Assembly: GCA_028711165.1 (NCBI GenBank)
Contig: JAQTST010000001.1
Coordinates: 232,857-296,856 of the forward strand
Length of the DNA stretch: 64,000 bases
Reading direction: 5' to 3'
From: Candidatus Nanoarchaeia archaeon
GTDB lineage: Archaea; Nanobdellota; Nanobdellia; Pacearchaeales; GW2011-AR1
Shown here: positions 10,342 through 57,678 of the stretch, piece after piece
How positions within the stretch are numbered: position 1 is the stretch's first letter
How the letters are laid out: every line of letters starts with the position of its first letter
The notes under the pieces: model-generated
What the model was told of the DNA's origin: nothing
Databases searched by the model: none
The model's input: the letters and a program-made list of their open reading frames with translations, nothing else
Program-made: the position numbers and the translations under genes

Positions 10342-10399
10342 TTCGCTCGTCAATCCCGCCCCCACCCAACGCGGAAACAATTTGTACTCGCGAAATTGA
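10342..10399. repeat. GC-rich miniature repeat, family A, reference copy
   Basis: tttcgctcgtcaatcccgcccccacccaacgcggaaacaatttgtactcgcgaaattg is a GC island in AT-rich intergenic DNA. Homologous copies are listed below. Confidence 0.8.
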
Positions 10400-10411
10400 A
10401 CTAAAGATAAA

Positions 10412-10582
10412 TTAATTATGATAATCTCCAATAAATTCTTGTCTGCTTCTTATTTTTGCTTCTCTTCTTAATTTGAGATAATTTTCAGTATATTCTGTTG
10501 TTTCTTCAATTTCCCCTCTTCTTAATTCTTCTTCGATTTCTTTACTGACTTCAACTTTTTCTATTTTTGTTTCTAATTCCAT
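10412..10582 (-). CDS. Possible small Glu/Lys-rich protein (56 aa), below the ORF-track length cutoff
   Basis: Minus-strand ATG...TAA ORF translating MELETKIEKVEVSKEIEEELRRGEIEETTEYTENYLKLRREAKIRSRQEFIGDYHN. It fills an otherwise empty 400-bp gap. No homology recognised. Confidence 0.2.
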   Translation of the reverse strand: MELETKIEKVEVSKEIEEELRRGEIEETTEYTENYLKLRREAKIRSRQEFIGDYHN

Positions 10583-10674
10583 AGATTATTGACGGATTTA
10601 TTCTTTATAATTATTATCTTCAAGTTGTGATACATTAATATAAAATTTATAAATCCTAGAATCGGGGTAGAAAA

Positions 10675-11325
10675 ATGATAACATTAAACCTTGAACAACT
10701 CTGCAATAATTATACTTATTTACTTGTAGATGCCTCTGCTTTCTTTCATCGCCTTTCAGAACGTGTCAATTTTGAGGATACAGAATATAAAATCGCGAGA
10801 AATAATCTTTCCAGTGAAATCCTATCTTTTTGGACAGAGAAAATACCTTCTAATCCGATTTATTCTACTATAGAGATAAAGAATGAAATAAATCACGGAG
10901 ATTATAAATATGGTAAATCTGTCAAAAGAAATTCTGGATCCAAAGACCGTATTGTCCTTGATTTGAGAAGGTCTATGAAGGAAGTAAAAGTTAATACAAA
11001 CAGATTAGTTAATACATTAGAAGAGAGAGAAAGAATCCTGGATTTAAACAACACGCAAAAACAATTATATAATTTCCTCTCTGATAAGTACAATCCTATT
11101 CTTTATAGAAATTCTAAAGGAGATTCTGATTTACTGCTCTCTGCCGGAATTTTATCCCAAAAACACCGTGTCTGCATTATTTCAAATGATTTTGGTTTGC
11201 TCAATAATTGGAAACTTTTTTTATATGAAGAAGGAATTGGGAGATTGAGATTTAATTTTTATATCCACGAAGAAAAAGACTCATTCAAGGAAGCAGTTTT
11301 TAATCTGAATTATCGCAAAAATTAA
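10675..11325 (+). CDS. Hypothetical protein, possible PIN-like nuclease fold
   Basis: N-terminal YLLVDASAFF and C-terminal DSDLLLSAGILSQKHRVCIISNDFGL resemble PIN-domain acidic residue spacing. Weak. Confidence 0.3.
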   Translation: MITLNLEQLCNNYTYLLVDASAFFHRLSERVNFEDTEYKIARNNLSSEILSFWTEKIPSNPIYSTIEIKNEINHGDYKYGKSVKRNSGSKDRIVLDLRRSMKEVKVNTNRLVNTLEERERILDLNNTQKQLYNFLSDKYNPILYRNSKGDSDLLLSAGILSQKHRVCIISNDFGLLNNWKLFLYEEGIGRLRFNFYIHEEKDSFKEAVFNLNYRKN

Positions 11326-12080
11326 CCCAACTTGTAAATTGCTGTGACATATGCAGTTACTTCTCTTTCCGACGGAGTTATTCCTGCGACTGCGGTTTTT
11401 GCACTCTCTGCTGATGTTCCTGACACTGAAGAATCATAAGCTCTGAGAGGGTAGTAATTATATGAATCCAGCGAAACAGAAACTAATCTTCCTAATCTTT
11501 TATTAAATCCCTCGGCAATTGCTTCTGCTTTTATTTTGGCATCTTCTGAAGCTGTCTGAATTGCCATAGCTTTGTATTCCTGTTCAAGTTCAGGCGAGAG
11601 CTCGAAATTGATATAGCTTATTCCAGCGCCTGCATTTGTTCCTGAATCAATGACGCTTGTTATTTTATCACTTTCCGACGCTGAGAAACTTATTTTCAAA
11701 GAATGAGTTGCCCGATATCCTGTTATCGTCGGTGTTGTTTTGTCGTAATCATATTCCGGATAAATGTTATAATTATCTGTTTTCAAATCATCGTCGCTGA
11801 AACCTAAAGCAACAATGTAACTTTTTAACTTTGTAACTATTGCTGTGTTTGCATCTTCTGCAATTTTTGACGTGCTTCCTGTTGTGTCGACGTTGAAATA
11901 AATTGAGATTAAATCAGGAGCTGCCTTTTCGACTCCCTGTCCGCTTACAGAAATTGTATTTGCCGTCGAGAAATTTGATTTATAAAAATACATTCCTGCA
12001 AGAGAAATAAATAAAACAGCAGCGACGATAATTAAAGTCATCTGAACTGACTTGTGCAGTTTCAATTTCTTTCTTGGCAT
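11322..12080 (-). CDS. SIMPL/DUF541-domain protein with N-terminal membrane anchor
   Basis: Signal-anchor MTLIIVAAVLFISLAGMYF. The body (ISVSGQGVEKAAPDLISIYFNVDTTG...RATHSLKISF...EVTAYVTAIYKL) fits the SIMPL-domain pattern. Confidence 0.5.
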   Translation of the reverse strand: MPRKKLKLHKSVQMTLIIVAAVLFISLAGMYFYKSNFSTANTISVSGQGVEKAAPDLISIYFNVDTTGSTSKIAEDANTAIVTKLKSYIVALGFSDDDLKTDNYNIYPEYDYDKTTPTITGYRATHSLKISFSASESDKITSVIDSGTNAGAGISYINFELSPELEQEYKAMAIQTASEDAKIKAEAIAEGFNKRLGRLVSVSLDSYNYYPLRAYDSSVSGTSAESAKTAVAGITPSEREVTAYVTAIYKLG

Positions 12081-12111
12081 GATTTATAGAAGAGATACGA
12101 GTTTTTAAAAG

Positions 12112-12804
12112 TTATTCAACTGAATACTCATTTTGAATCTCATAAAACTGATTAGTTTTTTCAAATCTTTTTTTTAACTGCTTAATAGAATTACCGCAAA
12201 CTCTCAATATTATTGGGTCATAAAGAGTTATTCTTATCTCATGGTTACTGCCTTCAGAATCAAAACGTATAAATGCCAAATCTTTTTTATTTATTTCTTG
12301 TTTCTTAAATATTTTTTTTATTTTTTTATCCAATTTATAAATACTAAAGCTATAACCTAATCTTTCTATTAAAATATTCTCTTCGGGGAAATCATTGAAA
12401 CATTTACTTAATGTATTCTCCCATGTTAGCATTATCGCTTCTAAAGAGGGAAGAACATTATGCTCTTCTAAGTCCATCATTTGCCTTTCTTTTGAAATAT
12501 ATTTTGACTCAATTATCCTGGACATATATCTTCCAAGACCCATTTCTTCAGCTACTTCTAATGCAATAGATAATGGAATTTTTGTTCTGTCTGTTTCTTT
12601 AAGGAATTTTTCTATTTCATATAAGTCTAATCTTTTTTCTTCATATTGTCTATGAGATTCACTTAAAGCAATTAAGTCCTGAAGTTCTTCATAAGAAATT
12701 TTTATTGAATCATCTAACTTATTTTTTGGATTAATTACTGTCGGAACATTAACCTTTTTTTCTAAACTTTTCTTATATTCTTTAAACTGCGGAGAAACAA
12801 CCAT
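12112..12804 (-). CDS. Hypothetical protein
   Basis: 230-aa ORF, no motif recognised. Confidence 0.35.
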   Translation of the reverse strand: MVVSPQFKEYKKSLEKKVNVPTVINPKNKLDDSIKISYEELQDLIALSESHRQYEEKRLDLYEIEKFLKETDRTKIPLSIALEVAEEMGLGRYMSRIIESKYISKERQMMDLEEHNVLPSLEAIMLTWENTLSKCFNDFPEENILIERLGYSFSIYKLDKKIKKIFKKQEINKKDLAFIRFDSEGSNHEIRITLYDPIILRVCGNSIKQLKKRFEKTNQFYEIQNEYSVE

Positions 12805-12870
12805 AAATCCTCTAAAAAAATTTCTCTTTTAAACTTTATGGATTACTCCTCATATAAGAAATATTCGACG

Positions 12871-15189: not shown

Positions 15190-15280
15190 TGTTATATCTG
15201 GAACTAACCAGTTTTTATAGTTTTTGAAATAGCCATCCCGATATAATAATACTTATAAATTTGAGTTTTGTCCGTTTGTT

Positions 15281-16243: not shown

Positions 16244-16471
16244 AAAAAAGAGAAATAAATTATCTTAATAAATCTAATCAAATCAGGAAGATTTTCACTT
16301 AATCTTTTTGTTCTTTTTCTAATGATTATATTGGATATAGGTATAATACAAAAAGTTTAAAGTCGAAACAGGAATTTCTCATTTAAATTTTTGTAGCATT
16401 AAATATATATCACATATACCTATACTACAAAAGATTTAAAAGCAAACTACTATCTGAATATATACATTAAA

Positions 16472-17339: not shown

Positions 17340-17572
17340 GAATGGCCCCGAAGTCAAAACGGAATTTTCTCATTCGAGTCCACTCACTCCTTCATGGCCC
17401 CGAATACTCGAGCCCCCACTCGTTGCAACTAAAATTTTTCTGGCACTCGTGAAAACTCTCTACTCCCGACCCCACTCGAAATCACAGAGACAAAATCTCA
17501 CTCGTGAAATCGCTCGGGATTTGTACCTCGATTCAAATCAACATTTAGAAATTGCAATTTTTCAATTGCAAA
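17340..17572. repeat. Composite of family-A repeat modules immediately 3' of tRNA-Lys, punctuated by three direct copies of the tRNA 3' terminus (atggccccgaa)
   Basis: atggccccgaag at 17342-17353, atggccccgaat at 17394-17405 and atggccccgaag at 17572-17583 (tRNA end). Modules between them include actcgagcccccactc, cactcgtgaaaactctc, gagtggggtcgg-type and cactcgtgaaatcgctcgggatttgtacctcg, all shared with other copies. Confidence 0.7.
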
Positions 17573-17684
17573 TGGCCCCGAAGGGATTTGAACCCTCGAC
17601 ACCCAGATTTCTCCCTTATGGTCGGAATCTTCTGTTCCACAATCTTAAGAGTCTGGTGCTCTAACCAGGCTGAGCTACGGAGCC
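17573..17684 (-). tRNA. tRNA-Lys(CTT) with 37-nt intron 3' of anticodon position 37
   Basis: Reverse complement: GGCTCCG-TA-GCTC-AGCCTGGTTA-GAGC-A-CCAGA-CTCTTA[AGATTGTGGAACAGAAGATTCCGACCATAAGGGAGAA]A-TCTGG-GTGTC-GAGGG-TTCAAAT-CCCTT-CGGGGCC-A. All stems pair. Intron is about 17609-17645. Confidence 0.8.
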
Positions 17685-18572: not shown

Positions 18573-18666
18573 CGAGTGTTCAGTAATCCCACCCCAACTC
18601 GAGCCCCCACTCCTTCTTCACTGACTCTGCCGTCGTGAAAACTCTCGCCCGCCCGAGGGGAAAGTT
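18573..18666. repeat. Family-A repeat copy (inverted-module variant)
   Basis: cgagtgttcagtaatcccaccccaactcgagcccccactc...cgtcgtgaaaactctcgcccgcccgagggg shares modules with 17400-17470 and 49225-49245. Confidence 0.65.
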
Positions 18667-18700
18667 AATTAGTCTTCGCATTCGTAATTTTATAAAAAGA

Positions 18701-23701: not shown

Positions 23702-24556
23702 TATTGTGTTTTCTGCCTGTGAGACTTTTGCGTGAGAGACTTCAATTAACTGTGGATACTGATGAAGATTTCCATTTTCCTCCAACTGCTTTAATGCAAA
23801 CAGAGATTTTATTCCGAATTTTTTTACGAGCCATCTTGAACAAAAAGGAAGTGTCTGATATTCGTCAGCTATAAAATCCAATATTTCCCTCGCTGTTGGA
23901 TTTCTGACATTCTTGCTGTCTATTAAAATATAAATTCCTGAAGGTTTTCCCTCGTAAATTTTTCCGCTTCCGTTTGTTGCGAAAGGCTCGATTGCATACA
24001 ATCCTTCACTGAGCTTTTCTTTATTTGTTGTTTTAATATTCATAATCGTAAGTCCTGCATGAAGTTCATATTCTTCCATTTCATGTCCTGTCAAATTAAC
24101 AATCGGAGAAAATTTGTATGATTCCATAGTCTCCTGAATTACTTTTCCTATTTCTCCGAGGGAACTTTTTTTCTCTGCTTCTCTGATTGCATTTTTCAGG
24201 GCTTTTTCAGATGCTTCAATTAATTTTTTATTTTCTGAATTATTTTCCAAATCAACTGAAAAAGCTGTGTCAGCAATCCAACCGTCGACGTGAACTCCAA
24301 AATCTACTTTCAGCAAACCGCTTGCTTTTGTCTCGTCATTGTAAGAAGGCGTGTAATGCGCGGCAATTTCATTTATTGAAAGATTTGTCGGGAAAGCAGG
24401 TTTTCCTTTTAGTTCTTTTATTTTATTTTCAATTTTTTCTGCGAGTTCAAGAAGGGGCATTCCTTTTTTTATTTGGGGTTTTATCCATTCTTTGACTTCG
24501 CTGGCAATCTTTCCTGCCTGCAAAATTTTTTCCTTTTGTTTTGATCTTGATGTCAT
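23666..24556 (-). CDS. map: Methionine aminopeptidase, type 2 (archaeal)
   Basis: GKIASEVKEW, AFPTNLSINEIAAHYTP, DFGVHVDGWIADTAFSV and the C-terminal ...HAKVSQAENTILV pita-bread fold motifs. Confidence 0.8.
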   Translation of the reverse strand: MTSRSKQKEKILQAGKIASEVKEWIKPQIKKGMPLLELAEKIENKIKELKGKPAFPTNLSINEIAAHYTPSYNDETKASGLLKVDFGVHVDGWIADTAFSVDLENNSENKKLIEASEKALKNAIREAEKKSSLGEIGKVIQETMESYKFSPIVNLTGHEMEEYELHAGLTIMNIKTTNKEKLSEGLYAIEPFATNGSGKIYEGKPSGIYILIDSKNVRNPTAREILDFIADEYQTLPFCSRWLVKKFGIKSLFALKQLEENGNLHQYPQLIEVSHAKVSQAENTILVDDKIIVTSE

Positions 24557-25119
24557 TCTTCTACCTTAATTTCTTTATATTTTAATCTTCTGCTTTTGGG
24601 TATGAAGTTACTTATTTTCTCTGCTGAGATTTTTCCTGTTCCGAGGAAATCGTTTTTGAACTTCATAATAAAAAATCCTTTTTCTATTTCGATTTCGCTC
24701 GTCGAGCCCACCCTCCCGCCCAACGGGGAATTAATTTGTACTCGCGAAATCTCTCTTGATTTCTTTATATCTTCTAATAACAATTCCTGCCCCATCATCC
24801 ATTGCTCTGCCTGTTTCTCGTCGAGTTCAAAAATATTTTTTGTAATTTGCTCTTTCATCAATTGAACTCCTTCAATACTCAATCTCAAGTCCTGTGTCTT
24901 CTCATCTATCTTTGCAAAATACAATCCAATTCCTTCAATCCTTGCAAACCTGTCTAATCCTAAAATTTCTTTTTCTGAAATATCTCCTGAAAAAACAATT
25001 ATTCTTTCTCTTCCAAGTTTTGCTAAACTGAATGGCACGTCTTTTATTCCAAACTGCTCGTTAAGTTGTTTGATGAATTGTTCTTTTTCATTTTTATTAA
25101 AAAATTTGAGAGGTATCAT
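24553..25119 (-). CDS. Hypothetical protein (possible RNA-binding/PUA-like) carrying an in-frame family-A repeat insertion
   Basis: Coding strand contains INSPLGGRVGSTSEIEIE, encoded exactly by repeat copy 24694-24752. The ORF-track N-terminus (to 25194) is encoded by repeat C, so the start is probably the internal Met (MIPLKFF). Confidence 0.4.
   Translation of the reverse strand: MIPLKFFNKNEKEQFIKQLNEQFGIKDVPFSLAKLGRERIIVFSGDISEKEILGLDRFARIEGIGLYFAKIDEKTQDLRLSIEGVQLMKEQITKNIFELDEKQAEQWMMGQELLLEDIKKSREISRVQINSPLGGRVGSTSEIEIEKGFFIMKFKNDFLGTGKISAEKISNFIPKSRRLKYKEIKVEE
24694..24752. repeat. Family-A repeat copy, in frame inside a minus-strand CDS
   Basis: gatttcgctcgtcgagcccaccctcccgcccaacggggaattaatttgtactcgcgaaatctc. 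Confidence 0.8.
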
Positions 25120-25124
25120 TGCGC

Positions 25125-25200
25125 AGACACTAAGAACCGAGGTTCCTAATACCTCCGATTGTCTTCTTAATCTTCCCACTAAATTTGTGCTCATGGCTGA
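25125..25200. repeat. Repeat C (includes family-B motif): GCGCRGACAC...AGGTTCCTAATACCTCC...CTTAATCTTCCC....AATTTGTG.TCA.G.CTGATTA
   Basis: gcgcagacactaagaaccgaggttcctaatacctccgattgtcttcttaatcttcccactaaatttgtgctcatggctgatta. Second copy at 45709-45776. Confidence 0.7.
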
Positions 25201-31046: not shown

Positions 31047-31892
31047 ATGAATGTAAAATCTTTTGATGTCCTCGGGAATATTGCAATTGTAAGATTCCCT
31101 GAGAAATTTAGTCCCGGAAACAAGAAAAAATTTGCCGAGAAAATTCTGAAGGAAAATAAAGGAATAAGAACGATTCTCGAGAAAAGGGAAAAAATTAAAG
31201 GAAGACTTAGAAAATTGTCGACGAATTTTATTGCAGGGGAAAACACAAAGGAAGTTTTGTATCGGGAAAATGATTGTGTTTTCAGATTTAATGTTGATGA
31301 AACTTATTTTTCCCCGAGGCTGAGCAATGAGCGAAAAGAGATTGCTGATAAAATCAAGAAGAATGAAACTGTCTTGGTGATGTTTGCAGGAGTCGCTCCT
31401 TTTTCGATTGTGATTGCAAAGAAATCAAAAGCAAAAAAAGTTTATTCAAACGAAATAAACCGCGAGGCGAACAAATATGCTGAGATGAATATCAAAATGA
31501 ATAAGCTGAAAGACAAGGTTATAATTGTTCCTGGCGATGCGAAAAAAATTCATGAGAAATTTGCAACTTCGTTCGCCAAGCCCACCCGCCCGCCCAAGGG
31601 GGAACAAATTAGTACTCGCGAAGTTGTTCCTTCTAAATTTGATGTCATTGTTATGCCCCGCCCGCAACTGAAAGATACTTTTCTGAAAGAAGCATTTGTT
31701 TTATCAAAAAAAGGAACCAGAATTTATTATTATGATTTCTGCAAGGTTGAAGATATTGATTTTGTCGTCGAGAAAATAAAAAACGAGGCAGAGAAATCAA
31801 AAAAGAAAATAAAGATTTTGAATGTGAAACGGGCAGGGGAAATTGCTCCTTACAAAACTAGATTGAGGGTTGATTTTGTGGTTTTGAATTAA
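31047..31892 (+). CDS. trm5: tRNA (guanine37-N1)-methyltransferase Trm5/Taw2 family, with in-frame family-A repeat insertion
   Basis: FDVLGNIAIV, FSPRLSNER, VLVMFAGVAPFSIV and DVIVMPRP motifs. The inserted peptide FAKPTRPPKGEQISTREV is encoded by the repeat at 31569-31626. Confidence 0.7.
   Translation: MNVKSFDVLGNIAIVRFPEKFSPGNKKKFAEKILKENKGIRTILEKREKIKGRLRKLSTNFIAGENTKEVLYRENDCVFRFNVDETYFSPRLSNERKEIADKIKKNETVLVMFAGVAPFSIVIAKKSKAKKVYSNEINREANKYAEMNIKMNKLKDKVIIVPGDAKKIHEKFATSFAKPTRPPKGEQISTREVVPSKFDVIVMPRPQLKDTFLKEAFVLSKKGTRIYYYDFCKVEDIDFVVEKIKNEAEKSKKKIKILNVKRAGEIAPYKTRLRVDFVVLN
31569..31626. repeat. Family-A repeat copy, in frame inside trm5
   Basis: cgttcgccaagcccacccgcccgcccaagggggaacaaattagtactcgcgaagttg. 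Confidence 0.8.
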
Positions 31893-33802: not shown

Positions 33803-33830
33803 TTTACTTGTTAATCCTCTAGAAATTTTG

Positions 33831-33885
33831 TTCGGTAAGCCCATCCTTCCGCCCAAGCGGAAATTAAGTTAGTCCTCACAAAATT
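33831..33885. repeat. Family-A repeat copy spanning the rfcL 5' region and the 3' end of the upstream 119-aa ORF
   Basis: ttcggtaagcccatccttccgcccaagcggaaattaagttagtcctcacaaaattt. Confidence 0.7.
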
Positions 33886-34228
33886 TTTCCTCCTTTCTTA
33901 TCGGTTCACAACCGTTAAAGTAAATTTCATTCGGTTCAATTTTTTTAATTATCTTGTATAATCCTTTAGTCCATACTTCTTCACCAAAAATAAAATGAGT
34001 GTACTCAGTTATTATTATGCTTGCAAGAGGATCTGATAACTTCTGATTTCCTTCTGTCTTTACTAATGGAATCTCCCCCCTTAAATAATAAATTCTTTGC
34101 CCTTTTTTTAAAAAATTATATTCTTTTCCTGTTTCTAATTCTTCGGGGAGACATTCTTCTAACTTTCTGTCTAATGTTCCAAATTTCCTTAACGCTAAAT
34201 CCGGATTAAATTCAACCTGAATTCCCAT
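33869..34228 (-). CDS. Hypothetical protein located between the two RFC subunit genes
   Basis: 119 aa. The last 5 codons (KFCED-stop) lie inside the repeat. Confidence 0.4.
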   Translation of the reverse strand: MGIQVEFNPDLALRKFGTLDRKLEECLPEELETGKEYNFLKKGQRIYYLRGEIPLVKTEGNQKLSDPLASIIITEYTHFIFGEEVWTKGLYKIIKKIEPNEIYFNGCEPIRKEEKFCED

Positions 34229-34229
34229 T

Positions 34230-35195
34230 TTACTCCTTCCCTAATCCTGCTAAAACGAATGATGCAAGAAGAGCCTGCAACTGAATAAATGGGTCAGAAC
34301 CCTCGACAATCCTGAATTCTGCTTCGCCTGTTTTTTCTGTAAGTTTTACTTTTATCGTCGGCTCGACAGGAAGATTCCAGATTTCTTTCTGAATTGCTTT
34401 TATAACATCCTGCCCCGAAATGCTTTCTTTCAGCATTATGTCAAGAAGTTTTTCTTTTGCGTTTACAAAATCTCCTGCGATTGCGTAATCAAGAACAACT
34501 CTTATATCACGGGGTTTTGTGTTTGAAATTATTGTCGCGACAAGTTCAGGAGTTATCGACGGGGAAATAGATGCTGTTGACTGCAAAATGTTTATACAGC
34601 GTCGGCAATCTCCTTCGCAACCTTCATACAGCACTTCAACTGTTTCTGGATTTATTATCAACTTTTCATTTTCAGCAATTCTTATTATAACTTTTTCGAT
34701 ATCTTTTTTTTCAAGAAGCTTGAAACGGAATATTGCACAACGGGACTGGATTGGGTCTATGATTTTGCTGGAGTAGTTGCAGGACATAATAAATCGGCAG
34801 GTTGCTGAATAATTTTCCATTGTTCTTCTCAATGCCTGCTGGGCTTCCGGAGTCAAGGCATCTGCTTCATCCAGAAAAATAATTTTGAAAGGAACATTCC
34901 CGATAGATTTTGTCCTCGCGAAATTTTTTACTTTTTCCCTTACAACATTTATCCCACGTTCATCAGAAGCATTCAACTCAAGATAATTTTCTTTCCAGTT
35001 TTCTTTGTACAGTTCTTTTACAACTATTAATGCGAGAGTTGATTTCCCTATTCCTGCCGGACCTGCGAAAAGCATGTGGGGAATATTCAGCGAATTTGTC
35101 AGTGCTTCCACTCTTTTTACGGAGTTATCCTGGCCGACAATTTCAAAGAACTTAGAGGGGCGATATTTTTCAGTCCATATACTCGATGCCATCAT
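34230..35195 (-). CDS. rfcS: Replication factor C small subunit
   Basis: IWTEKYRP, MLFAGPAGIGKST, FLDEADALT and SRC-motif region FIMSCNYSSKIIDPIQSRCAIFRF. Confidence 0.85.
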   Translation of the reverse strand: MMASSIWTEKYRPSKFFEIVGQDNSVKRVEALTNSLNIPHMLFAGPAGIGKSTLALIVVKELYKENWKENYLELNASDERGINVVREKVKNFARTKSIGNVPFKIIFLDEADALTPEAQQALRRTMENYSATCRFIMSCNYSSKIIDPIQSRCAIFRFKLLEKKDIEKVIIRIAENEKLIINPETVEVLYEGCEGDCRRCINILQSTASISPSITPELVATIISNTKPRDIRVVLDYAIAGDFVNAKEKLLDIMLKESISGQDVIKAIQKEIWNLPVEPTIKVKLTEKTGEAEFRIVEGSDPFIQLQALLASFVLAGLGKE

Positions 35196-38655: not shown

Positions 38656-38708
38656 GCCCCTGTAGTCTAAGCGTCACACAGGAATGTTCGACATAGACTT
38701 TTGGGGCA
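38656..38708 (+). pseudogene. tRNA-Glu-derived pseudo-fragment (first 14 nt and acceptor 3' end of the downstream tRNA flanking a palindromic core)
   Basis: GCCCCTGTAGTCTA...TAGACTTTTGGGGCA. The first 14 nt are identical to tRNA-Glu 5' end. Too short (53 nt) to be a tRNA. Confidence 0.4.
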
Positions 38709-38718
38709 GGAAGAATAA

Positions 38719-38944
38719 GCCCCTGTAGTCTAGAGGCCAAGGACACCACCCTCTCAAAACGCGGAAAGCGGTTTGAATGAAGATTAAAAATCTGATTTCA
38801 AAGTTATAAGAGAGGTGATCAAATCTCGATGAGAGTGGAGATCTAGCATCTCAATGCAATCTCTCGTAGAGAATAACTTCAATCGCGGACAAAATCCGCA
38901 ATTAGGGTACGGTGGTAACCCGAGTTCAAATCTCGGCGGGGGCA
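38719..38944 (+). tRNA. tRNA-Glu(CTC) interrupted by a roughly 153-nt intron (38758-38910), apparently at position 38/39
   Basis: 5' exon GCCCCTG-TA-GTCT-AGAGGCCAA-GGAC-A-CCACC-CTCTCAA; 3' exon GGTGG-TAAC-CCGAG-TTCAAAT-CTCGG-CGGGGGC-A. Acceptor, D, anticodon and T stems all pair across the two exons. Confidence 0.65.
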
Positions 38945-39171
38945 TATTATTTGAACGAGGGGAACCCGATTCAAATCCGAGAGTTTTCACGTGGGCAAGG
39001 AAAAATTTTGTTCGCTGACTTTTTAAAAAACAATTTCGTTCGTCAATCCCGCCCACCCACCCGTTTGGGAAAAATTTGTACTCACGAAATTGTTTTGTTC
39101 CATTAGAAAAAATTAGTTCTCGCAAAATTTTTGGGAGAATGAGTGGGGGCTCGAGTTAGGCGGGGGCATCC
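38945..39171. repeat. Family-A repeat copies 3' of tRNA-Glu, bounded by a direct duplication of the tRNA 3' terminus (ggcgggggcat at 38935-38945 and 39159-39169)
   Basis: cgttcgtcaatcccgcccacccacccgtttgggaaaaatttgtactcacgaaattg (39036-39092) and aattagttctcgcaaaattttt...gagtgggggctcgag. Also a T-arm-like fragment cccgattcaaatccgag. Confidence 0.7.
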
Positions 39172-44081: not shown

Positions 44082-44154
44082 AGCCCCATAGTACAGCGGT
44101 CAAGTATATCGGCCTCTGGAGCCGGTGACCCAGGTTCGAATCCTGGTGGGGCTA
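44082..44154 (+). tRNA. tRNA-Gln(CTG)
   Basis: AGCCCCA-TA-GTAC-AGCGGTCAA-GTAT-A-TCGGC-CTCTGGA-GCCGG-TGAC-CCAGG-TTCGAAT-CCTGG-TGGGGCT-A. All stems pair. Confidence 0.8.
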
Positions 44155-44268
44155 TTTCTTTTATGGGGATGAGAACCTGAAGGTTCGACGAGCGATTTCA
44201 CGAGTGCCGAAAAATATTTTAATGCAACGAGTGGGGTCGCGAGCACTGATGGGGCTATTTCTTTTATC
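44155..44268. repeat. Roughly 85-bp family-A-related insert immediately 3' of tRNA-Gln, flanked by 18-bp direct repeats of the tRNA 3' end
   Basis: TGGGGCTATTTCTTTTAT at 44148-44165 and 44251-44268. The insert contains cggcactcgtgaaatcgctcgtcgaacc (rc) and gagtggggtcgcgag, which match modules at 17497-17515 and 17461-17480. Confidence 0.7.
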
Positions 44269-47490: not shown

Positions 47491-49146
47491 TTATTCCAGC
47501 TTCCTGAAAATTTCTTCCAGACTAATTTCAAATAACGAAACAGGCATTTTTATTTTCCAGTTCTTCAAAATCTTTGGATGAATTTCTCCGAGGAAACCTA
47601 TTGATTTTTCTTTTTTGTCTTCACGAAGTCCGTTCATTAAAAATATTTCAGCAGTTCTGCCCTCGATGAAATAGTTTGGAATTTTGCTTTCTGGCTCTGT
47701 AATTTTTATTTCTACATTCAGCATTCTTGAAAGATATTCGAGAATCTGCCTGACTTCTGTGAAATTTGCAGGAGCAACAGCGAGTGCAAGACTTTCTGTT
47801 TCTTTGTAATTGCTGAAAACTTTTCCGGTCTCAAATATTTTCTGCGGATATTCTGAGTCAACATTTTCTGAAAGAATTTTCATCAGATAGTGGCTTAAAT
47901 CTTTTCTGAGAATTGTATAATCTGTTTTTGATGCCTCAATCTCGACGGCATTTTCTTCCGGCATTGACATTTTTTTGAACTGGTCGCTTTTGCTTGTAAG
48001 ATGATAACTCGAAGTTTCCAAGATGTTTAATCCTGTAAGAATTTCTGCAATTTTTCTCTTTATTATTTCTTTTCCACTTTCTTTTCCGACTGTTGATATC
48101 TCAGGAATTTCGGGAATGAAATTTTCATAACCATAAGCAATTGCTATATCTTCTATCAAATCAACTTCATGAAGCATATCTGTCCTCCACGACGGTATTT
48201 CCACAATTCCTTTATTATAATTGTGCCCCATTTTTTCTATGAATTCTTTAACTTGTTTTTCGTTCAAATTTAACCCTAAAAGAGAATTTGCATTCTGAAT
48301 ATTCAGTTTCATTTTTTCAGGAGTCAAGTCAGGAGTTATTTTCTTTTTGCCTCCTTCTTTAAGTTCCATCTGATAAATTTTACCACCCATATCTGCAAGA
48401 ATTGTCACAATCATATTCAGGCACTTTTGCAAAACTGAGAAATCAAAACCAGAGCATTCGACGAAAACATCTGTGGTTTCTTCTGTTATCTTTCCTGTTT
48501 TCTGGGAATTTATAATCGGAGGCATACTTAAAACATTATTTTCAGCGTCGACAAATATGGGGAATTTTGATTTGCCTGCAAGCAAGTGTGCATATTCTCT
48601 TCCTGTCGGATGTCTCTGAAGAATTTGTAATCCTGACATTTCTCTGTCAGATTCGAGCGGAATGAATTTTATCTTATCTGGTTCAAGAGCTTTGAAAGTT
48701 ATCGGCAATTTTATTTTTTCAAGAGGATAAATTCCTATGGCAAGTTTTTTTCTTTTCCTGCCGACGGTGAAATGCAATTTTTCCTGCACATCAATTATCT
48801 CCTTAATTTTCTCGTCATCGAACTTCAATCCTCTGACAATCGCACAGGCAGTATAAGGACGAATATTTTTTACTGAAGAATCTATTATTACAGAATAATC
48901 TTTTTCTGGTTTGTTAACTTTGTATTCTTTCAAACCTTTTTGTTTTCCCAAGAATGAGAGGAAACTTCTTTTGAATCCCTGATAAGAAAGCAAGTCCGGG
49001 CGATTTGGATTTACATTTATTTCGAAATCTGTATCAGAAACTGACTCGACTGTTGTTCCGAACATTGCAACTTTGTTTTGCATTTTCTCGTCGAGCTTTC
49101 CGATTTCTTTCTCAAATAATTTTTTGTTTATTGATATATTAGCCAT
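47491..49146 (-). CDS. pheT: Phenylalanyl-tRNA synthetase beta subunit (archaeal type)
   Basis: About 550 aa; N-terminal B3/B4-like region (NPNRPDLLSYQGF) and C-terminal class II core. Confidence 0.75.
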   Translation of the reverse strand: MANISINKKLFEKEIGKLDEKMQNKVAMFGTTVESVSDTDFEINVNPNRPDLLSYQGFKRSFLSFLGKQKGLKEYKVNKPEKDYSVIIDSSVKNIRPYTACAIVRGLKFDDEKIKEIIDVQEKLHFTVGRKRKKLAIGIYPLEKIKLPITFKALEPDKIKFIPLESDREMSGLQILQRHPTGREYAHLLAGKSKFPIFVDAENNVLSMPPIINSQKTGKITEETTDVFVECSGFDFSVLQKCLNMIVTILADMGGKIYQMELKEGGKKKITPDLTPEKMKLNIQNANSLLGLNLNEKQVKEFIEKMGHNYNKGIVEIPSWRTDMLHEVDLIEDIAIAYGYENFIPEIPEISTVGKESGKEIIKRKIAEILTGLNILETSSYHLTSKSDQFKKMSMPEENAVEIEASKTDYTILRKDLSHYLMKILSENVDSEYPQKIFETGKVFSNYKETESLALAVAPANFTEVRQILEYLSRMLNVEIKITEPESKIPNYFIEGRTAEIFLMNGLREDKKEKSIGFLGEIHPKILKNWKIKMPVSLFEISLEEIFRKLE

Positions 49147-49162
49147 TTTATTTCTTCCAAAC

Positions 49163-49276
49163 TTCGCTCGTCAATCCCACCCAACTCAAGCCCTCACTCA
49201 TTGCTATTAATTTCTGCTGGCATTCGTGAAAACTCTCGCCCACCCAATGCGGAAAAAATTTGTACTCGCGAAATTT
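49163..49276. repeat. Family-A repeat, longest composite copy (intergenic between pheT and pheS)
   Basis: acttcgctcgtcaatcccacccaactcaagccctcactcattgctattaatttctgctggcattcgtgaaaactctcgcccacccaatgcggaaaaaatttgtactcgcgaaattt. Confidence 0.8.
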
Positions 49277-49287
49277 AATTTCATTTA

Positions 49288-50793
49288 TCATTTTGTCCAA
49301 AATTTTATCTTTCTTAATTTGTTTAAATTATTCTCATACATCTCACGATAATTTTTTATTCCGTAATAATCCATCACTGTTCTGTCTCCTGGTCCCCACG
49401 CTAATACTGTTATGTTTTCTCCAAAAAGAGGAATGACTACTTCTGGGCGTAAAATTCCTGCTCCTCCGAGTTCGAACCATATCTTTTTCTCGGGATGCCA
49501 TACATCAATCTCGACACTTGGTTCTGTGTAAGCGAAATATGAAGGACGGAATCTTACTTTTTCAAAACCCATCTTCCTGAAGAATTCCTGCAGATAGCCA
49601 AGCAGATTTCTGAAATTTAAATTTGGAGCGACGACAATTCCTTCTGTCTGATTGAATTCAAATCCGTGACTCCAGTCGACTGTTTCATTTCTGAAACATT
49701 TTCCGACGGCAAAGAATTTTGCAGGGATATTTTTTTTATCCAAATTTGCAAGTGTGTGCGCGGATAAAGCAGTTGTATGAGTTCTGAGGACAAGTTTTTT
49801 TGCTTCTTCTTCACTCCATTCATAGCCCCACCCCTTGCTTCCACCAATTCCTTTTTCATGCGCTTCTTTCACTGCTTTCACAATTTTTCTGTCAGACAAT
49901 TCTACTTTTTTATTTATGAAGAATGTATCCTGCATTTCACGGACGGGGTGGTCTTGTGCAGTGAACAATGCGTCAAAAACCCAGAATGAACTTTGCATTA
50001 TATCTCCGCTCATTTCCTGGAATCCCATCTGCGTCCAAATCTTGCGCATATAATCTGTTGCCTGATTTACAAAATGTCTTTTTCCTCCGTTTATCGACGG
50101 CAAAGGAGAAGTCACGTCATATCTTCTGAATTTTTTTCCTCTCCATGCAGATTCTCTTTCAAGAAGTTTTGGTGTCACACCTTCAATTAAATCTCCAACG
50201 CCCCTGTTAGATTTTATAATCTCCTCGCCAAGTTTAGTTATATTTATGCTAATTAATTCTTCCTCTCTAATCTGAACAATGTCTTTTCTTTTCTCCAGAG
50301 ATTTCAAGGAGTACAACTGTTCAGGACTTAGCAAATGATATTCCATCGGGAGCATTTCTATGAATAATTCTTCAAGGGTTTTTCTGGAAATTTCATCTCC
50401 GCTTCCTGTCAGAACCAGTTTTTCATTTTTTATTTCTATCAGCGCCTTTTTTTTCAGAGCGCCGATTGATGCCTTGAACTCTTCAGTTGAAAGTCCGCTT
50501 TGTCTTTGTGCTTCATCTAATTTTAAAATTCTTTTTTCATTCAGCAAATTCAGCAATCTTCTCTCGGGCAATTCTTTTTTTCTGTACAACGCACCATTAA
50601 CTCCCAGCTCGACAGTTTTCTTTCTCTCTTTTGATAAGGTAATCAATTTTTTATTTTCGAGATATTCCAATGCACGAAGAACAGAAGTTTTATCCAGCTT
50701 TGATTGCCTGCAGATTTCATCTATATTTTCTTTTAAGTAAGGAAGAATCTTTCTCTCGTTCGGGCTCAGTGATTCAATGAGTTTCTCGTCCAT
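49288..50793 (-). CDS. pheS: Phenylalanyl-tRNA synthetase alpha subunit (archaeal type)
   Basis: About 500 aa; class II motifs FRPSYFAYTEPSVEIDVW and GAGILRPEV. Confidence 0.8.
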   Translation of the reverse strand: MDEKLIESLSPNERKILPYLKENIDEICRQSKLDKTSVLRALEYLENKKLITLSKERKKTVELGVNGALYRKKELPERRLLNLLNEKRILKLDEAQRQSGLSTEEFKASIGALKKKALIEIKNEKLVLTGSGDEISRKTLEELFIEMLPMEYHLLSPEQLYSLKSLEKRKDIVQIREEELISINITKLGEEIIKSNRGVGDLIEGVTPKLLERESAWRGKKFRRYDVTSPLPSINGGKRHFVNQATDYMRKIWTQMGFQEMSGDIMQSSFWVFDALFTAQDHPVREMQDTFFINKKVELSDRKIVKAVKEAHEKGIGGSKGWGYEWSEEEAKKLVLRTHTTALSAHTLANLDKKNIPAKFFAVGKCFRNETVDWSHGFEFNQTEGIVVAPNLNFRNLLGYLQEFFRKMGFEKVRFRPSYFAYTEPSVEIDVWHPEKKIWFELGGAGILRPEVVIPLFGENITVLAWGPGDRTVMDYYGIKNYREMYENNLNKLRKIKFWTK

Positions 50794-50850: not shown

Positions 50851-50900
50851 CCCCACTAATATTTCGACTACGTCGAAAAACCCGCCCGAGAGAATTTTAT
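50851..50900. repeat. Partial family-A-like fragment with TCGACTACGTCGA palindrome
   Basis: ccccactaatatttcgactacgtcgaaaaacccgcccgagagaatttt. Confidence 0.35.
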
Positions 50901-55712: not shown

Positions 55713-56239
55713 TTCAAATCCTTTTGGTATTCCTTAATCCAATTTAATTCTCCAATTATCAGATATTGAGGTCTTCTTGCTAAAGCCCGAACATGTTTCT
55801 GAGAACTACAGCCTTGCAGATATTTTTCAAGCTCTTTGTAACAAGCCAGCATTTCATTAAGCCTCTTCTCATATTTTTTAAGGCATTCGATTGCTTCTTT
55901 TTTTGTCAACTGATCCAAATGAGAAGTTGCCAAGTCAATTCTTGATAATGTCTTCTCAGGTTCACTGATGAGTATTTTTATTTTCTCTTTCAGTTTCTTT
56001 TTACCGTCGCTGGTTAATGAATAAACTTTCTGAGAAATATTCTTTTGGGAAACTTTCATCTCACTTTTGATTAGTTTTTCTTTCTCGAGTTTTCTCAGTA
56101 ATTTGTAAACCGAAGACATAGATATCTCTGTCCAATCACGCATAGCCCTGTTTTTTATTTCCTGTTCGATTTTATATGCATGCATTGCTCCTTCTGAAAG
56201 AAGCCCTAAAAGTGCTGTTTCTTTATTTGATATTGTCAT
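55709..56239 (-). CDS. PadR-family transcriptional regulator
   Basis: LLGLLSEGAMHAYKIEQEI...SSVYKLLRKLEKEKLIKS winged helix typical of PadR. Confidence 0.7.
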   Translation of the reverse strand: MTISNKETALLGLLSEGAMHAYKIEQEIKNRAMRDWTEISMSSVYKLLRKLEKEKLIKSEMKVSQKNISQKVYSLTSDGKKKLKEKIKILISEPEKTLSRIDLATSHLDQLTKKEAIECLKKYEKRLNEMLACYKELEKYLQGCSSQKHVRALARRPQYLIIGELNWIKEYQKDLK

Positions 56240-56286
56240 ATTACTATATTGGAATAATATACTATATAAATCTTCTGATTATAAAA

Positions 56287-56961
56287 TTAGAAATCTCCGA
56301 TTATTGTTCCTTTAAACTTTTTGTGTTCAAGCAGTGCATTCAACTGCTTCATGTCTTTTCCTAAAATATAAGTTGTAATTTTTTCTTTCATAATTATCGT
56401 CGATGCTGTCTGGTCGAGGACAAAATGCTGTCCTGGTTTGAATTTTTCTTTTGTTGCCATCTTGTGAAAATCCTTCCAAGAAATTCTAGGAATAAATTTT
56501 GCATCTTTGTGTTTTTTCGGGTTCTTGTCGTGCAAACCAGCAACGTCGGTGAGATTGATAAAAATCGTTTTGAACTCTTTTGCAATCTGCGCTGAAGTTG
56601 AATCTGATGTTTGGTGGGGTTTGTATTCCAGCGCTCCGCAAAACACAACGTCGAATTTTTTTGCATATTTTTTTAATTCTTCCATCTTGTGGGGAATTCC
56701 TCTTTCCTGGTCCTGTTTAAAAAAATAAGACATGAAACGCGCATTCATTCTCGTCGCTGAAATGCCTGCAAAACTCTGGAAAAGTTCATTCATCCCAATT
56801 TCTCTCAGGGCTGAAATATATTTTCTTGCAATGCTCCCGCCTCCGCAGACAATAATAAATTTGTACCTTCTTGTATTTTCAAGAATTGTCTTTCTGAATT
56901 CTTTCAGATATTTCACGTCGATATTATCTGGAATTATCAGACTTCCCCCAAGACTTAAGAC
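56287..56961 (-). CDS. pyrH: UMP kinase (archaeal type)
   Basis: MKKEVIVLSLGGSLI and FIIVCGGGSIARKY amino-acid-kinase fold motifs. The upstream part of the long track ORF (to 57429) is antisense to dacZ and was excluded. Confidence 0.7.
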   Translation of the reverse strand, partial: VLSLGGSLIIPDNIDVKYLKEFRKTILENTRRYKFIIVCGGGSIARKYISALREIGMNELFQSFAGISATRMNARFMSYFFKQDQERGIPHKMEELKKYAKKFDVVFCGALEYKPHQTSDSTSAQIAKEFKTIFINLTDVAGLHDKNPKKHKDAKFIPRISWKDFHKMATKEKFKPGQHFVLDQTASTIIMKEKITTYILGKDMKQLNALLEHKKFKGTIIGDF

Positions 56962-57033
56962 TATCACTTCTTTTTTCATTTGCAATATTCTAATGAAGAC
57001 AAAATTTAAAAAGTTATTGAATACTGTTTTTAT

Positions 57034-57618
57034 ATGCCAGAAAAAAAAGTCAGCCTTGAAGAAGTACTCGTCCAAGTCGGATTGAGAATTGCCAAGCGCG
57101 GGGAAGGCGCACTTTTTGTCGTTGGAGATGTTCCTTATACTTCTCTTGTAAAACAAACTGTCCCGCCGTTCAATGTCATTGATAATCCTAAACTTCTTGA
57201 ATCTCTCGCACTTATAGACGGTGCTGTGATAATTGACAAAAATGGATTTTTGAAAGCTTACGGTGTTATGATAAAAAGCAAAAGGGTTTTGAAAGATCAC
57301 GGGACAAGGCATAGTGCAGCATTGACTGCCGCAACCGAGGGAAACTTTGTTGTTATAATTTCCGAAGAAGACAGAAAAGTAAAAATTTTGAAAGACGGAA
57401 AAATGGTTATGCAGCTTGATGCTCTGCAAAAAAATGTTGAGAAGACAGTGCCACGTATCGTCGGATTTCTTGAGGCTATCGGTGCAGGAACTGTCGGTGC
57501 TATCGGAACAAGCGTTTTAGCTCCAACCTTGGGAATTGCACTTTTGCCGGGAGTAATTGTATTTGGTTCTGCATATTACCTGGTAAAATTATTAGGAAAA
57601 AGATTTGGGGAAAGATAA
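57034..57618 (+). CDS. dacZ: Diadenylate cyclase (DAC/DisA_N domain) with C-terminal membrane segment, DacZ-like
   Basis: GEGALFVVGD, LIDGAVIIDKNG and DHGTRHSAALTAA follow the DAC signature (GALIV...GAIII...G.RH.AA). Hydrophobic C-terminus. Confidence 0.65.
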   Translation: MPEKKVSLEEVLVQVGLRIAKRGEGALFVVGDVPYTSLVKQTVPPFNVIDNPKLLESLALIDGAVIIDKNGFLKAYGVMIKSKRVLKDHGTRHSAALTAATEGNFVVIISEEDRKVKILKDGKMVMQLDALQKNVEKTVPRIVGFLEAIGAGTVGAIGTSVLAPTLGIALLPGVIVFGSAYYLVKLLGKRFGER

Positions 57619-57633
57619 TTTATTTTGTTTCCT

Positions 57634-57678
57634 CTACTCTCGCCCACCCACGACGGAAGAAAGTTGTTATCACCTCTT
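57634..57678. repeat. Partial family-A repeat fragment
   Basis: ctctcgcccacccacgacggaagaaagttgttatcacc versus ctctcgcccacccaatgcggaaaaaatttgtactcgcg at 49230. Confidence 0.5.

Follow-up and report, generated by a model that had tools for sequence, protein, structure and literature searches.

Short GC-rich hairpin-forming repeats scattered through a small AT-rich archaeal genome

Two elements in the Nanoarchaeia window

The window, that is the whole stretch of 64,000 nt analysed here, belongs to a Candidatus Nanoarchaeia (DPANN) MAG with a GC content of 34%, and elements and enzymes were counted in 84 kb of host DNA from a 447-kb contig, made up of the window plus 10 kb of flank at either end. 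This small AT-rich genome does contain a real, dispersed family of short GC-rich repeats that form hairpins, located in intergenic spacers, beside tRNA genes and in frame within two housekeeping genes (Table 1). With 42-58% GC against 34.3% for the whole window, the elements are indeed the GC islands that a preliminary description had seen in them. The copy at 10342 is no assembly artefact, since it is identical, together with its flanks (10334-10404, 71 nt), in three independent Logan assemblies.

Table 1. Repeat copies and associated tRNA features in the window
Feature	Position	Strand	Evidence or setting
Short element (arms and C-run core)	10340-10401	+	nhmmer E=8e-18; spacer after RadA-like gene, between convergent gene ends
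Direct repeats of adjacent tRNA 3' end, CTTCGGGGCCATT and ATTCGGGGCCAT	17341-17353; 17394-17405	-	tRNA sense
Two tandem M2 modules	17406-17461; 17462-17523	+	nhmmer E=1e-14; 2e-10
tRNA gene with 39-nt intron	17573-17684	-	Rfam RF00005, 55.9 bits
Long form: divergent short element, M2 (18597-18651) nested in C-run	18573-18684	+	nhmmer; spacer between two minus-strand genes
Short element in PUA-domain gene	24691-24755	+	nhmmer, translation, alignments of relatives
Short element in Trm5	insert 31563-31628 (nhmmer 31566-31629)	+	
Short element	33825-33889	+	between 119-aa ORF and RFC large-subunit gene
tRNA-Glu(CUC) with 153-nt intron	38719-38944	+	ARAGORN, intron option
Split M2 halves	38973-39011; 39122-39156	-	nhmmer
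tRNA-Gln(CUG)	44082-44154	+	
M2, subtype b	44183-44243	-	nhmmer E=4e-15, fold
Long form: short element with nested M2 (49184-49244)	49152-49284	+	nhmmer
Core-only partial copy (C-run core)	57636-57671	+	nhmmer E about 0.01-0.04 (weak); between convergent genes

The three sequence modules on which the family had been founded do recur as dispersed copies: allowing up to three mismatches, CGCTCGTCAATCCCGCCC was matched four times (0.00 expected by chance), ATTTGTACTCGCGAAATT seven times (0.16 expected) and CGTGAAAACTCTCGCCC four times (0.08 expected), all far above chance. Using nhmmer profiles to locate the elements, we recovered 10 of the 11 sites listed earlier as family members, whereas 50851-50900 gave no match even at E<=10 and does not belong to the family. 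The copies align well, match no Rfam family and are not pieces of rRNA or RNase P RNA. No description of a family with this consensus was found in the searchable literature, in line with the initial remark that it was not recognised from any described archaeal MITE.

The presumed single "family A" is a mosaic of two separable elements. The first, the palindromic or short element (60-66 nt), consists of two arms, TTCGCTCG... and ...CTCGCGAA, with a variable outer stem, which enclose the C-run core CCCNCCCNCCCNCCC (in the layout CCCNCCCNCCCNCCC-AA-GGGRAA), and the opposite strand of this core is a textbook G-quadruplex motif. It folds into a stem of 8-10 bp, a 2x2 internal loop and a second, shorter stem that carries a 1-nt bulge (-14 kcal/mol, z=-3.4 for the copy at 10340-10401). 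Across 13 copies 80% of the cells are paired, compared to 29-49% with partners slid, and 11 pairs have changed on both sides, which none of 500 shuffles reached. The mismatches are symmetric (12 G-T versus 9 A-C), so the palindrome is maintained as DNA rather than in one RNA strand. The outer stem varies from copy to copy and covaries, and the conserved ends do not amount to fixed terminal inverted repeats. The second element, M2, is a hairpin of 55-60 nt and is strand-specific, with three invariant U-G pairs and covarying pairs on the flanks; its G-rich strand is the sense strand of local transcription in all seven cases.

The copy at 33825-33889 provides the upstream 119-aa ORF with its five terminal codons and its stop (KFCED*) and has a positional orthologue with 76% identity (L015 13203-13264). 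The long form at 49152-49284, in which the nested M2 is flanked on both sides by CCCACCC(A) copies, occupies the entire PheS-PheT spacer and likewise has a positional orthologue (L017 3252). Public annotation places a 47-aa gene across this long form. A second core-only copy, resembling that at 57636-57671, lies in the host flank (L095 9055-9093).

Copies within genes and at tRNA 3' ends

Although the repeats carry no ORF of their own, as had been stated, two copies lie in frame within host ORFs and are translated in different frames. The Trm5 gene (31047-31892, plus strand) contains an insert of exactly 66 nt (22 codons) beyond its 258-aa orthologues, placed in a loop ahead of the FDVIVMPRP motif. 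AlphaFold2 predicts this insert with low confidence (pLDDT <50 at residues 176-191), as a disordered loop that joins a helix to a strand in a model that is confident elsewhere. The same loop has undergone at least 18 gains or losses among 75 orthologues and also holds unrelated GC-rich inserts. The PUA-domain gene (24553-25194, minus strand) reads its insert on the G-rich strand of the element, gaining 27 residues relative to L001 and L002 in protein and DNA alignments with syntenic relatives, and its Pfam domain PF13636 comes after the insert. Together with an ORF in L011, these are three independent in-ORF copies, translated from either strand and in more than one frame, and all are in frame and without stops. 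Testing orthologues for in-frame inserts is biased towards intact genes. The PUA gene of L003 retains an element remnant, also in frame, in which the core persists though the arms are lost. Over all copies, 41 of 78 frames are open, compared to 26.5 expected.

M2 lies downstream of four of the six host tRNA genes, enclosed by a duplicated piece of the tRNA 3' end, with flanking direct repeats of 7 to 18 nt. At the tRNA gene 17573-17684 the 3' end is duplicated around the two M2 modules, whose G-rich strand is the sense strand of the tRNA, and an exact 13-nt repeat lies 219 nt downstream. The 3' end of tRNA-Glu(CUC), GGCGGGGGCAT, recurs at 39159-39169. According to nhmmer and arm alignments this locus is a triple nesting within the duplicated tRNA-Glu piece: the M2 (38973-39156) is interrupted by an older short element of which the arms alone are left (39002-39014, 39105-39133), and this element is itself split by an intact short element (39032-39094, plus strand). 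The same arrangement is present in L003. For tRNA-Gln(CUG), the sequence repeated at 44250-44267 (TGGGGCTATTTCTTTTAT) comprises the 3' end and the 10 nt that follow it, and the G-rich strand of M2 is again the tRNA sense strand.

Strand polarity and apparent mobility

The elements had been described as occurring in both orientations. This holds for M2, but all ten palindromic copies in the 84 kb of host DNA carry the C-rich strand on the plus strand regardless of gene orientation (two-sided binomial about 0.002 by our own calculation). In 730 kb of loci obtained via the Trm5 gene, 15 of 15 copies have the C-rich strand on the Trm5-sense strand, although many of these loci are syntenic and the copies therefore not all independent events. 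All three canonical G-quadruplex motifs of the window fall within elements (0.06 expected). This absolute polarity, the G-quadruplex/C-run core, the in-frame insertions in Trm5 and the PUA gene and the tight link of M2 with tRNA 3' ends had been missed in the preliminary description.

Judged from sequence comparison, the elements are apparently mobile, which is argued by three lines of evidence. Firstly, nesting is reciprocal: at 18.6 and 49.2 kb the short element contains an M2, and at 39 kb it is M2 that contains a short element. Secondly, in the empty-site comparison that had been proposed, the orthologous sites proved empty in the closest relatives: those in Trm5 and the PUA gene in the syntenic relatives L001-L004, L097 and L098, and that flanking tRNA-Gln in L001 and L003. 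Thirdly, copies resemble each other more within than between genomes, forming genome-specific subfamilies: pairwise identity is 73-84% among host copies but only 56% between the host Trm5 copy and its same-site counterpart in L005, and the two L017 copies share 80% with one another and less than 60% with any other copy. For the palindromic element, we found neither a target-site duplication of fixed length nor a clean junction between empty and filled sites, the flanks of the Trm5 site being too diverged between the compared genomes. The earlier statement that integrases and transposases are absent proves correct for the window, and also for the 10 kb flanking it at either end, based on precomputed Pfam hits. 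A tblastn search of 830 kb with Y1-transposase sequences, a weak test, brought up no mobilising enzyme. Some copies are retained in place even between genomes with Trm5 identities of only about 70-75%, and show compensatory changes in the stem; this could point to a function instead of a parasitic nature, or to template switching that corrects the palindrome.

Possible origin of the repeats

Starting from the observed repetition, covarying hairpin, nesting, polarity, in-frame copies, variable occupancy of orthologous sites and subfamilies restricted to one genome, we regard the repeats in this Nanoarchaeia (DPANN) lineage as probably selfish DNA elements, non-coding and able to form hairpins, similar to Rickettsia palindromic elements (RPEs) and the GC clusters of yeast mitochondria. 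New copies would arise within one genome and would preferentially land in AT-rich spacers and in the loops of earlier copies, and M2 beside C- or G-runs such as tRNA 3' ends. Selection would spare only harmless copies, those in spacers or donating a stop codon, and inside genes those that are stop-free, have a length that is a multiple of three and fall into a surface loop of the protein, where they would be translated as a disordered peptide. Movement may proceed via a single-stranded DNA hairpin at the replication fork with an enzyme acting in trans; alternatively, G-quadruplex-forming copies may be tolerated on one template strand only. The uniform orientation of the copies would follow from either.

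RPEs are likewise short palindromic repeats of a reduced AT-rich genome without a known transposase, which occur in spacers and repeatedly in frame within unrelated housekeeping genes, compatible with folding and kept at orthologous sites (PMC10969869). In contrast, they are bacterial, about 100-150 bp long and unrelated in sequence, and have been described with one coding frame and a conserved peptide, whereas the present element is read in different frames on both strands and has in addition the G-quadruplex/C-run core and strict strand polarity. Yeast mitochondrial GC clusters (e.g. GC42; PMC4478555) are also GC-rich hairpins of 30-60 nt proliferating in a very AT-rich genome, with stems more conserved than loops, units that merge and shuffle into mosaics and a copy number varying between lineages; they differ in being organellar and eukaryotic and in a putative AG target duplication, and are not known to show strand polarity or an association with tRNA 3' ends. 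The REP, REPIN and BIME sequences of bacteria share imperfect palindromes with co-evolving arms, dispersal at gene ends, mosaics and long persistence at orthologous sites. A Y1 (RAYT) transposase mobilises them in the form of single-stranded hairpins. REPs, however, hardly occur within genes, and their definition includes a partner RAYT gene and a GTAG/CGTC head (PMC3733652), whereas our elements also lie within genes and the weak search of 830 kb revealed no RAYT/Y1 gene. A term search in a general REP survey of archaea (PMC12306157) gave no mention of DPANN or Nanoarchaeota.

It is rather unlikely that the repeats are instead functional cis-acting structures under selection, such as signals for transcript ends or stability, signals for replication or chromosome polarity, or protein-binding sites in the form of DNA or RNA hairpins or G-quadruplexes. 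Such roles would fit the positional orthologues with compensatory stem changes (33825 and L015 13203; 49152 and L017 3252), the polarity, the conserved G3N1 x4 core that outlasts the arms in the L003 PUA gene, the position of most copies exactly at gene ends and the strand-specific M2 with its transcription-sense G-rich strand. However, ORF copies are read on either strand and in more than one frame, presence in close relatives is patchy, some copies are nested or truncated, the palindrome carries symmetric wobble mismatches and the position relative to promoters and terminators is inconsistent. Some copies may have been exapted.

Even less likely in our opinion is an origin of M2 and its direct repeats as attL/attR scars, left at tRNA 3' ends by recombination of integrative elements (viruses or plasmids); like bacterial CIMEs, such scars might still be mobilised in trans. 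Four of the six host tRNA genes and tRNA-Glu of L003 do have an exact copy of 11-18 nt of their own 3' end 95-219 nt downstream, with an imperfect copy of the T-arm of the same tRNA ahead of M2; a fifth tRNA (L095 4289-4359) shows a similar duplication around a different insert, and the tRNA-Gln/tRNA-Glu region is rearranged relative to L003. Yet the four tRNAs with the same M2 differ in core sequence, so that one site-specific integrase would not serve all of them, and M2 also inserts into the C-run of palindromic elements that are remote from any tRNA. Moreover, there is no integrase in the 84 kb and no match in viral contigs, and the palindromic element would be left wholly unexplained.

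The preliminary description had regarded the repeats as non-autonomous, miniature and modular, which is supported, as is their apparent mobility, by nesting, empty sites, genome-specific subfamilies and the lack of coding capacity and of a transposase nearby. The strict MITE reading is not supported, since there are no fixed terminal inverted repeats, no fixed-length target duplication and no known parent insertion sequence. Archaeal MITEs such as Sulfolobus SM1-4 are also non-autonomous miniature repeats, and an automated census including DPANN genomes found a high MITE density in one Woesearchaeal genome (PMC11602168), but MITEs are defined by fixed terminal inverted repeats with target duplications and by their relation to an IS, neither of which applies here. 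It is very improbable that the repeats are IS deletion derivatives moved by a DDE transposase, despite being small, multicopy and ORF-free with inverted-repeat ends: the outermost paired bases covary between copies, unlike a fixed transposase-binding repeat, the palindromic element shows no target duplication of uniform length and the repeats around M2 vary, DDE transposition is not expected to give strict polarity, and the 84 kb contain no insertion sequence.

The least credible idea, that the in-gene copies are intervening sequences absent from the protein, either as bulge-helix-bulge introns removed by the tRNA splicing endonuclease or by translational bypassing like the byps of Magnusiomyces mitochondria, would suit GC-rich structured inserts in AT-rich archaeal genes, the repeated hits on one Trm5 loop, stems maintained through compensatory changes and a host with many long and unusual tRNA introns, but no splicing motif was found in the elements, no bulge-helix-bulge can be drawn from their fold, the same element is common outside genes, and the reading frame is kept, free of stops, in all three independent in-ORF copies as well as in one decayed remnant (chance for the three at most about 0.04 by our own calculation), which neither splicing nor bypassing needs. 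If the region is translated, the peptide predicted for the Trm5 insert is KPTRPPKGEQISTR.

A mosaic of two nested hairpin elements

DPANN archaea have tiny genomes, which are thought to be poor in mobile DNA. About 1.4% of the window is nevertheless a mosaic of GC-rich hairpin repeats. The preliminary description of a dispersed repeat family is confirmed, and the finding is richer than first reported. The three modules named there occur four, seven and four times with up to three mismatches (0.00, 0.16 and 0.08 expected), and profiles built from the copies recover 10 of the 11 listed sites, so that the family is real and far above chance. Its copies are indeed GC islands, with 42-58% GC compared to 34.3% for the window. 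Only the partial fragment proposed at 50851-50900 has to be removed from the family, as it matches neither profile. The copy at 10342 is identical, together with its flanks (10334-10404, 71 nt), across three independent assemblies of sister samples. The elements are therefore not assembly artefacts, and these assemblies, which all carry the copy unchanged, show no strain-level presence/absence difference at this site. An exact-pattern scan of species-representative genomes gave a single match, in a Nanoarchaeota MAG (L011), indicating that the exact subfamily is narrow. Using nhmmer on 830 kb of related loci, we found 18 copies in eight sources (the window and seven loci), two of which, L003 and L004, seem to share one sequence. 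The two 10-kb host flanks of the window (L095, L096) were taken from contig JAQTLT010000001.1 (GCA_028714745.1), where the window lies reversed at ~313-377 kb; its Trm5 protein has an identical counterpart in a "Candidatus Nanoarchaeia archaeon" MAG.

What had been described as one "family A" consists of two elements: a palindromic short form of 60-66 nt, built of two arms around a C-run core, and a separate hairpin, M2 (see the table). Beyond the arms of the short form follow 3-9 extra base pairs that vary in sequence from copy to copy while complementarity is kept. When 13 copies from the window and from relatives are compared, 80% of the cells are paired versus 29-49% with partners slid, and 11 pairs have changed on both sides, a number reached in none of 500 shuffles. 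Such co-varying arms are also typical of REP/REPIN-type hairpins. G-T and A-C mismatches occur equally often (12 versus 9), which argues that the palindrome is kept at the DNA level, or on either strand, and rejects a structure of one RNA strand. M2, on the other hand, folds on the G-rich strand only. Its 10-bp stem has three invariant U-G pairs, the flanking pairs switch between AU and CG or AU and UG, and 90% of the cells are paired versus 35-47% with partners slid.

The two elements are nested in both directions. At 18.6 and 49.2 kb, where the long forms lie, M2 is inserted into the C-run of a short element. At 39 kb the order is reversed: an older short element, now reduced to its arms, interrupts M2 and is itself split by an intact copy. 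Two copies in the related locus L017 contain an extra small hairpin (GCGGACTTCGTCCGTGGG or GCGAACTTCGTTCGCGGG) directly after the C-run, which is a further nesting layer in the loop.

Elements and associated features (window positions unless a locus is named)
Feature	Position	Strand	Description
Short form, 5' arm			TTCGCTCGTCAAT
Short form, C-run core			CCCNCCCNCCCNCCC, then AA..GGGRAA
Short form, 3' arm			ATTTGTACTCGCGAA
M2			about 55-60 nt; ACTCGAGCCCCCACTCGTTGC, AT-rich loop, GGCACTCGTGAAAACTCTCG
Weak partial 3'-arm match	995-1016		in aminoacyl-tRNA synthetase gene; E 0.01-0.15; may be chance or decayed remnant
Weak partial 3'-arm match	34897-34926		in RFC small-subunit gene; E 0.01-0.15; may be chance or decayed remnant
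Long form	18573-18684		
Copy in PUA-domain gene	24691-24755		
Copy in Trm5 gene	31563-31628		
Intact short copy	39032-39094		
Long form	49152-49284		
Annotated 47-aa gene	49146-49288 (L094 14405-14548)		wholly long-form repeat, between PheS and PheT
Different small hairpin	50851-50900		TTTCGACTACGTCGAAA, then CCCGCCCGAGAG
Copies with extra hairpin	L017 189-258, 3252-3326		
tRNA-Glu(CUC)	38719-38944	+	153-nt anticodon-loop intron; found only with the ARAGORN intron option
Sequence upstream of tRNA-Glu	38659-38712	+	second copy of first 14 nt of tRNA-Glu (GCCCCTGTAGTCTA), GGGGC ~35 nt later
Second repeat family	4701-4764, 25143-25156		CTAAGAACC..GGTTCCTAATACCTCC, itself a small hairpin
Sequence related to second family	L095 4186-4285		~100-nt insert
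Trm5-loop inserts, example loci	L023, L063, L071, L089; L027, L036, L045, L068; L040, L054		

In-frame copies and the history of the sites

Seven copies in the window are full, and two of them lie within genes, in contrast to the extragenic location of REP/REPIN sequences. The copy within Trm5 adds exactly 22 codons compared to the orthologues in the closest relatives, which are 258 aa long, and the one in the PUA-domain gene, on the strand opposite to Trm5, adds 27 codons compared to the relatives L001 and L002. Both ORFs are intact and both sites are empty in the relatives; a predicted peptide spanning an insert would be KPTRPPKGEQISTR. Hairpin repeats have entered essential genes of a DPANN archaeon without breaking them, and a palindromic multicopy element is found in frame within unrelated conserved genes, as known for Rickettsia palindromic elements (RPEs). 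The L011 copy lies within an intact 366-aa ORF and is read in a frame different from that of the PUA-gene copy. There is therefore no conserved element-encoded peptide, and it is the DNA that is conserved. Of the 78 frames of the copies, 41 are open (26.5 expected), an excess that helps them to survive in genes.

In Trm5, the insert is positioned in the loop before the FDVIVMPRP motif, and nothing in the Trm5b structure 5YAC corresponds to residues 172-191. AlphaFold2 places residues 176-191 between a helix and a strand with pLDDT <50, whereas the rest of the fold is confident; according to this model, the insert would be tolerated at the protein surface, again as in RPEs. The same loop carries an insert in many of 80 metagenomic orthologues (30 of 75 scored, about 40%). 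Several unrelated GC-rich families are represented among these inserts, whose distribution on a tree calculated with the insert masked requires 18 or more gains or losses. All of them are in frame, which is not independent evidence since the retrieval of orthologues favours intact genes. The recurrence of unrelated inserts indicates that several element families exploit the Trm5 loop. Among the Trm5 orthologue loci of other lineages (L012-L091), the unrelated inserts are hairpin-forming and GC-rich, and recurrent insert peptides include GRLSEGNRRCP, SRKEREENxG and TQGRTPKNSFQ.

Besides the Trm5 and PUA-gene sites, a tRNA-Gln site is also empty in the nearest relatives, so that the comparison of orthologous loci supports mobility. 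Each genome has its own subfamilies: the host copies share 73-84% identity among themselves, the Trm5 copy of the host is only 56% identical to the copy at the same site in the related locus L005, and the two L017 copies are 80% alike with their private extra hairpin in common. Against a rapid turnover speak compensatory stem changes and positional orthologues of copies 33825 (in L015) and 49152 (in L017), in relatives whose Trm5 is 70-75% identical. At the Trm5 site no target-site duplication is visible in comparison with the closest relatives (80% nucleotide identity), whose flanks have diverged too far to reveal one.

Elements also affect gene annotation. The upstream ORF ends within copy 33825, which provides its final five codons and stop codon, and the annotated 47-aa gene between PheS and PheT is very likely spurious. 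Gene callers already annotate spurious small ORFs and longer proteins over the elements.

Strand polarity, affinities and a possible mechanism

On the opposite strand, the core of the short form reads G3N1G3N1G3N1G3, which on sequence grounds is a canonical G-quadruplex motif (four G3+ runs, loops of 1-7 nt); this G-rich strand, d(GGGCGGGCGGGTGGG), is a candidate G-quadruplex former. The motif is carried on the minus strand by copies 24694, 31569 and 39036 and by most copies in relatives. All three canonical motifs of the window fall within elements (0.06 expected), 15 of 15 further motifs in 730 kb of related loci are C-rich on the Trm5-sense strand, and in the PUA gene of L003 the core is retained while the arms are gone. 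In the 84 kb of host DNA (window and flanks), the C-rich strand is the plus strand in all ten palindromic copies or fragments (two-sided binomial, about 0.002), with flanking or host genes on either strand. The G-rich strand of M2 follows the sense of local transcription in seven of seven cases, and M2 is consequently found on both DNA strands. The assertion that copies occur in both orientations thus applies to M2 and fails for the palindromic element. The elements represent a natural set of putatively strong G-quadruplex motifs with strict strand polarity, which could be used for locating replication origins or for studying G-quadruplex tolerance in unculturable organisms.

Overall, we consider it probable that these are selfish hairpin elements. 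For RPEs, in-frame insertion into housekeeping genes is described and no transposase is known (PMC10969869); our elements share both features, with RPE-like denoting a functional class and not a homology family, and would extend this Rickettsia-type "selfish DNA inside proteins" to Archaea. The GC clusters of yeast mitochondria are GC-rich hairpins that spread in AT-rich DNA and whose units merge and shuffle, with a mechanism left unsettled (PMC4478555); our elements behave alike. Co-varying arms and long persistence resemble REPINs. All three differ from the present elements, which have an archaeal host, a predicted G-quadruplex core, strict strand polarity and a companion module linked to tRNAs. 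MITEs in DPANN genomes have been counted in an automated census (PMC11602168), and in the literature searched we found no published description of this repeat family or its properties.

With respect to the mechanism, movement could proceed via a single-stranded hairpin intermediate at the replication fork. Such a replication-coupled mechanism is a tentative proposal at best, and the polarity may alternatively reflect selection against G-quadruplexes on one template strand. Somewhat less likely still is the joint reading as a new archaeal class of hairpin elements with a G-quadruplex/i-motif core, in which i) insertion or survival would be limited to one orientation relative to replication, ii) spread would occur via single-stranded DNA without a recognisable transposase, perhaps by host replication and repair enzymes together with template switching at hairpins and C/G-runs, iii) new peptide loops would be supplied to essential proteins of genome-reduced DPANN archaea and iv) M2 would be an RNA-level hairpin copying into tRNA 3' trailers by pairing with the acceptor end.

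The initial assignment to non-autonomous miniature mobile elements holds in substance, and the strict MITE class has to be given up. The elements are indeed without a transposase or integrase in the 84 kb of host DNA, where the precomputed Pfam hits of the 10-kb flanks are housekeeping only. A RAYT/Y1 HUH transposase is found neither in the Pfam calls of these 84 kb nor by tblastn in 830 kb, the latter being a weak test. However, MITEs have fixed terminal inverted repeats, while here the inner arms are conserved and the terminal 3-9 paired bases vary and co-vary. There is also no constant target-site duplication (none for the palindromic element, repeats of 7-18 nt for M2) and, in the 84 kb covered of the 447-kb contig, no known parent insertion sequence. 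Fragments of a known structural RNA, considered in the preliminary description, are excluded as only three tRNAs reach the Rfam gathering score and no family overlaps any copy even at E ≤ 5; a separate sensitive RNA-family scan of 38.5-39.3 kb gave no match. Archaeal intron boundaries form a bulge-helix-bulge (helix, 3-nt bulge, 4-bp helix, 3-nt bulge, helix), which is seen neither in the five short copies folded nor in M2 folded with its flanks. A viral or plasmid origin is rejected by two pattern scans of viral contigs, with five chance matches lacking the core and none, respectively, and there is no CRISPR-like tandem array.

M2 and the 3' ends of tRNA genes

In four of the six tRNA genes of the host DNA, and in tRNA-Glu of L003, the tRNA 3' end is recopied exactly (11-18 nt) 95-219 nt downstream, giving a direct repeat that bounds the M2 insert as in att remnants. 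Read in the sense of the tRNA, an imperfect T-stem/T-loop copy of the same tRNA, M2 and the exact 3'-end copy directly adjoin each other. From its place between both copies, M2 sits where T-loop and 3' T-stem meet in a duplicated tRNA 3' piece. Neither the duplicated piece nor M2 is present at tRNA-Gln in L001 and L003. The duplications may be integrase scars that M2 colonised later; in the loci read, these sites contain no integrase gene or full-length element. They may also be a product of M2 insertion itself via microhomology with the acceptor end.

Unusual tRNA genes beside the elements escape default scans: tRNA-Glu(CUC), whose gene and intron are also present in L003, was missed by default ARAGORN and by Rfam, even in the sensitive scan. 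The sequence just upstream of it resembles a degenerate piece of a tRNA, or a hairpin. In L003 (20.2-20.7 kb), tRNA-Gln and tRNA-Glu are adjacent on one strand with a 3-nt spacer, whereas in the window (38.6-44.3 kb) they are 5 kb apart with genes between, which suggests that the region was rearranged, with breakpoints in the repeat-laden flanks of the tRNAs. Of the second repeat family, two tandem copies follow the ScpB gene and a third lies upstream of the PUA gene. The related insert in the host flank L095 is delimited by a near-exact repeat of the 3' terminus of a tRNA, the one at L095 4289-4359.
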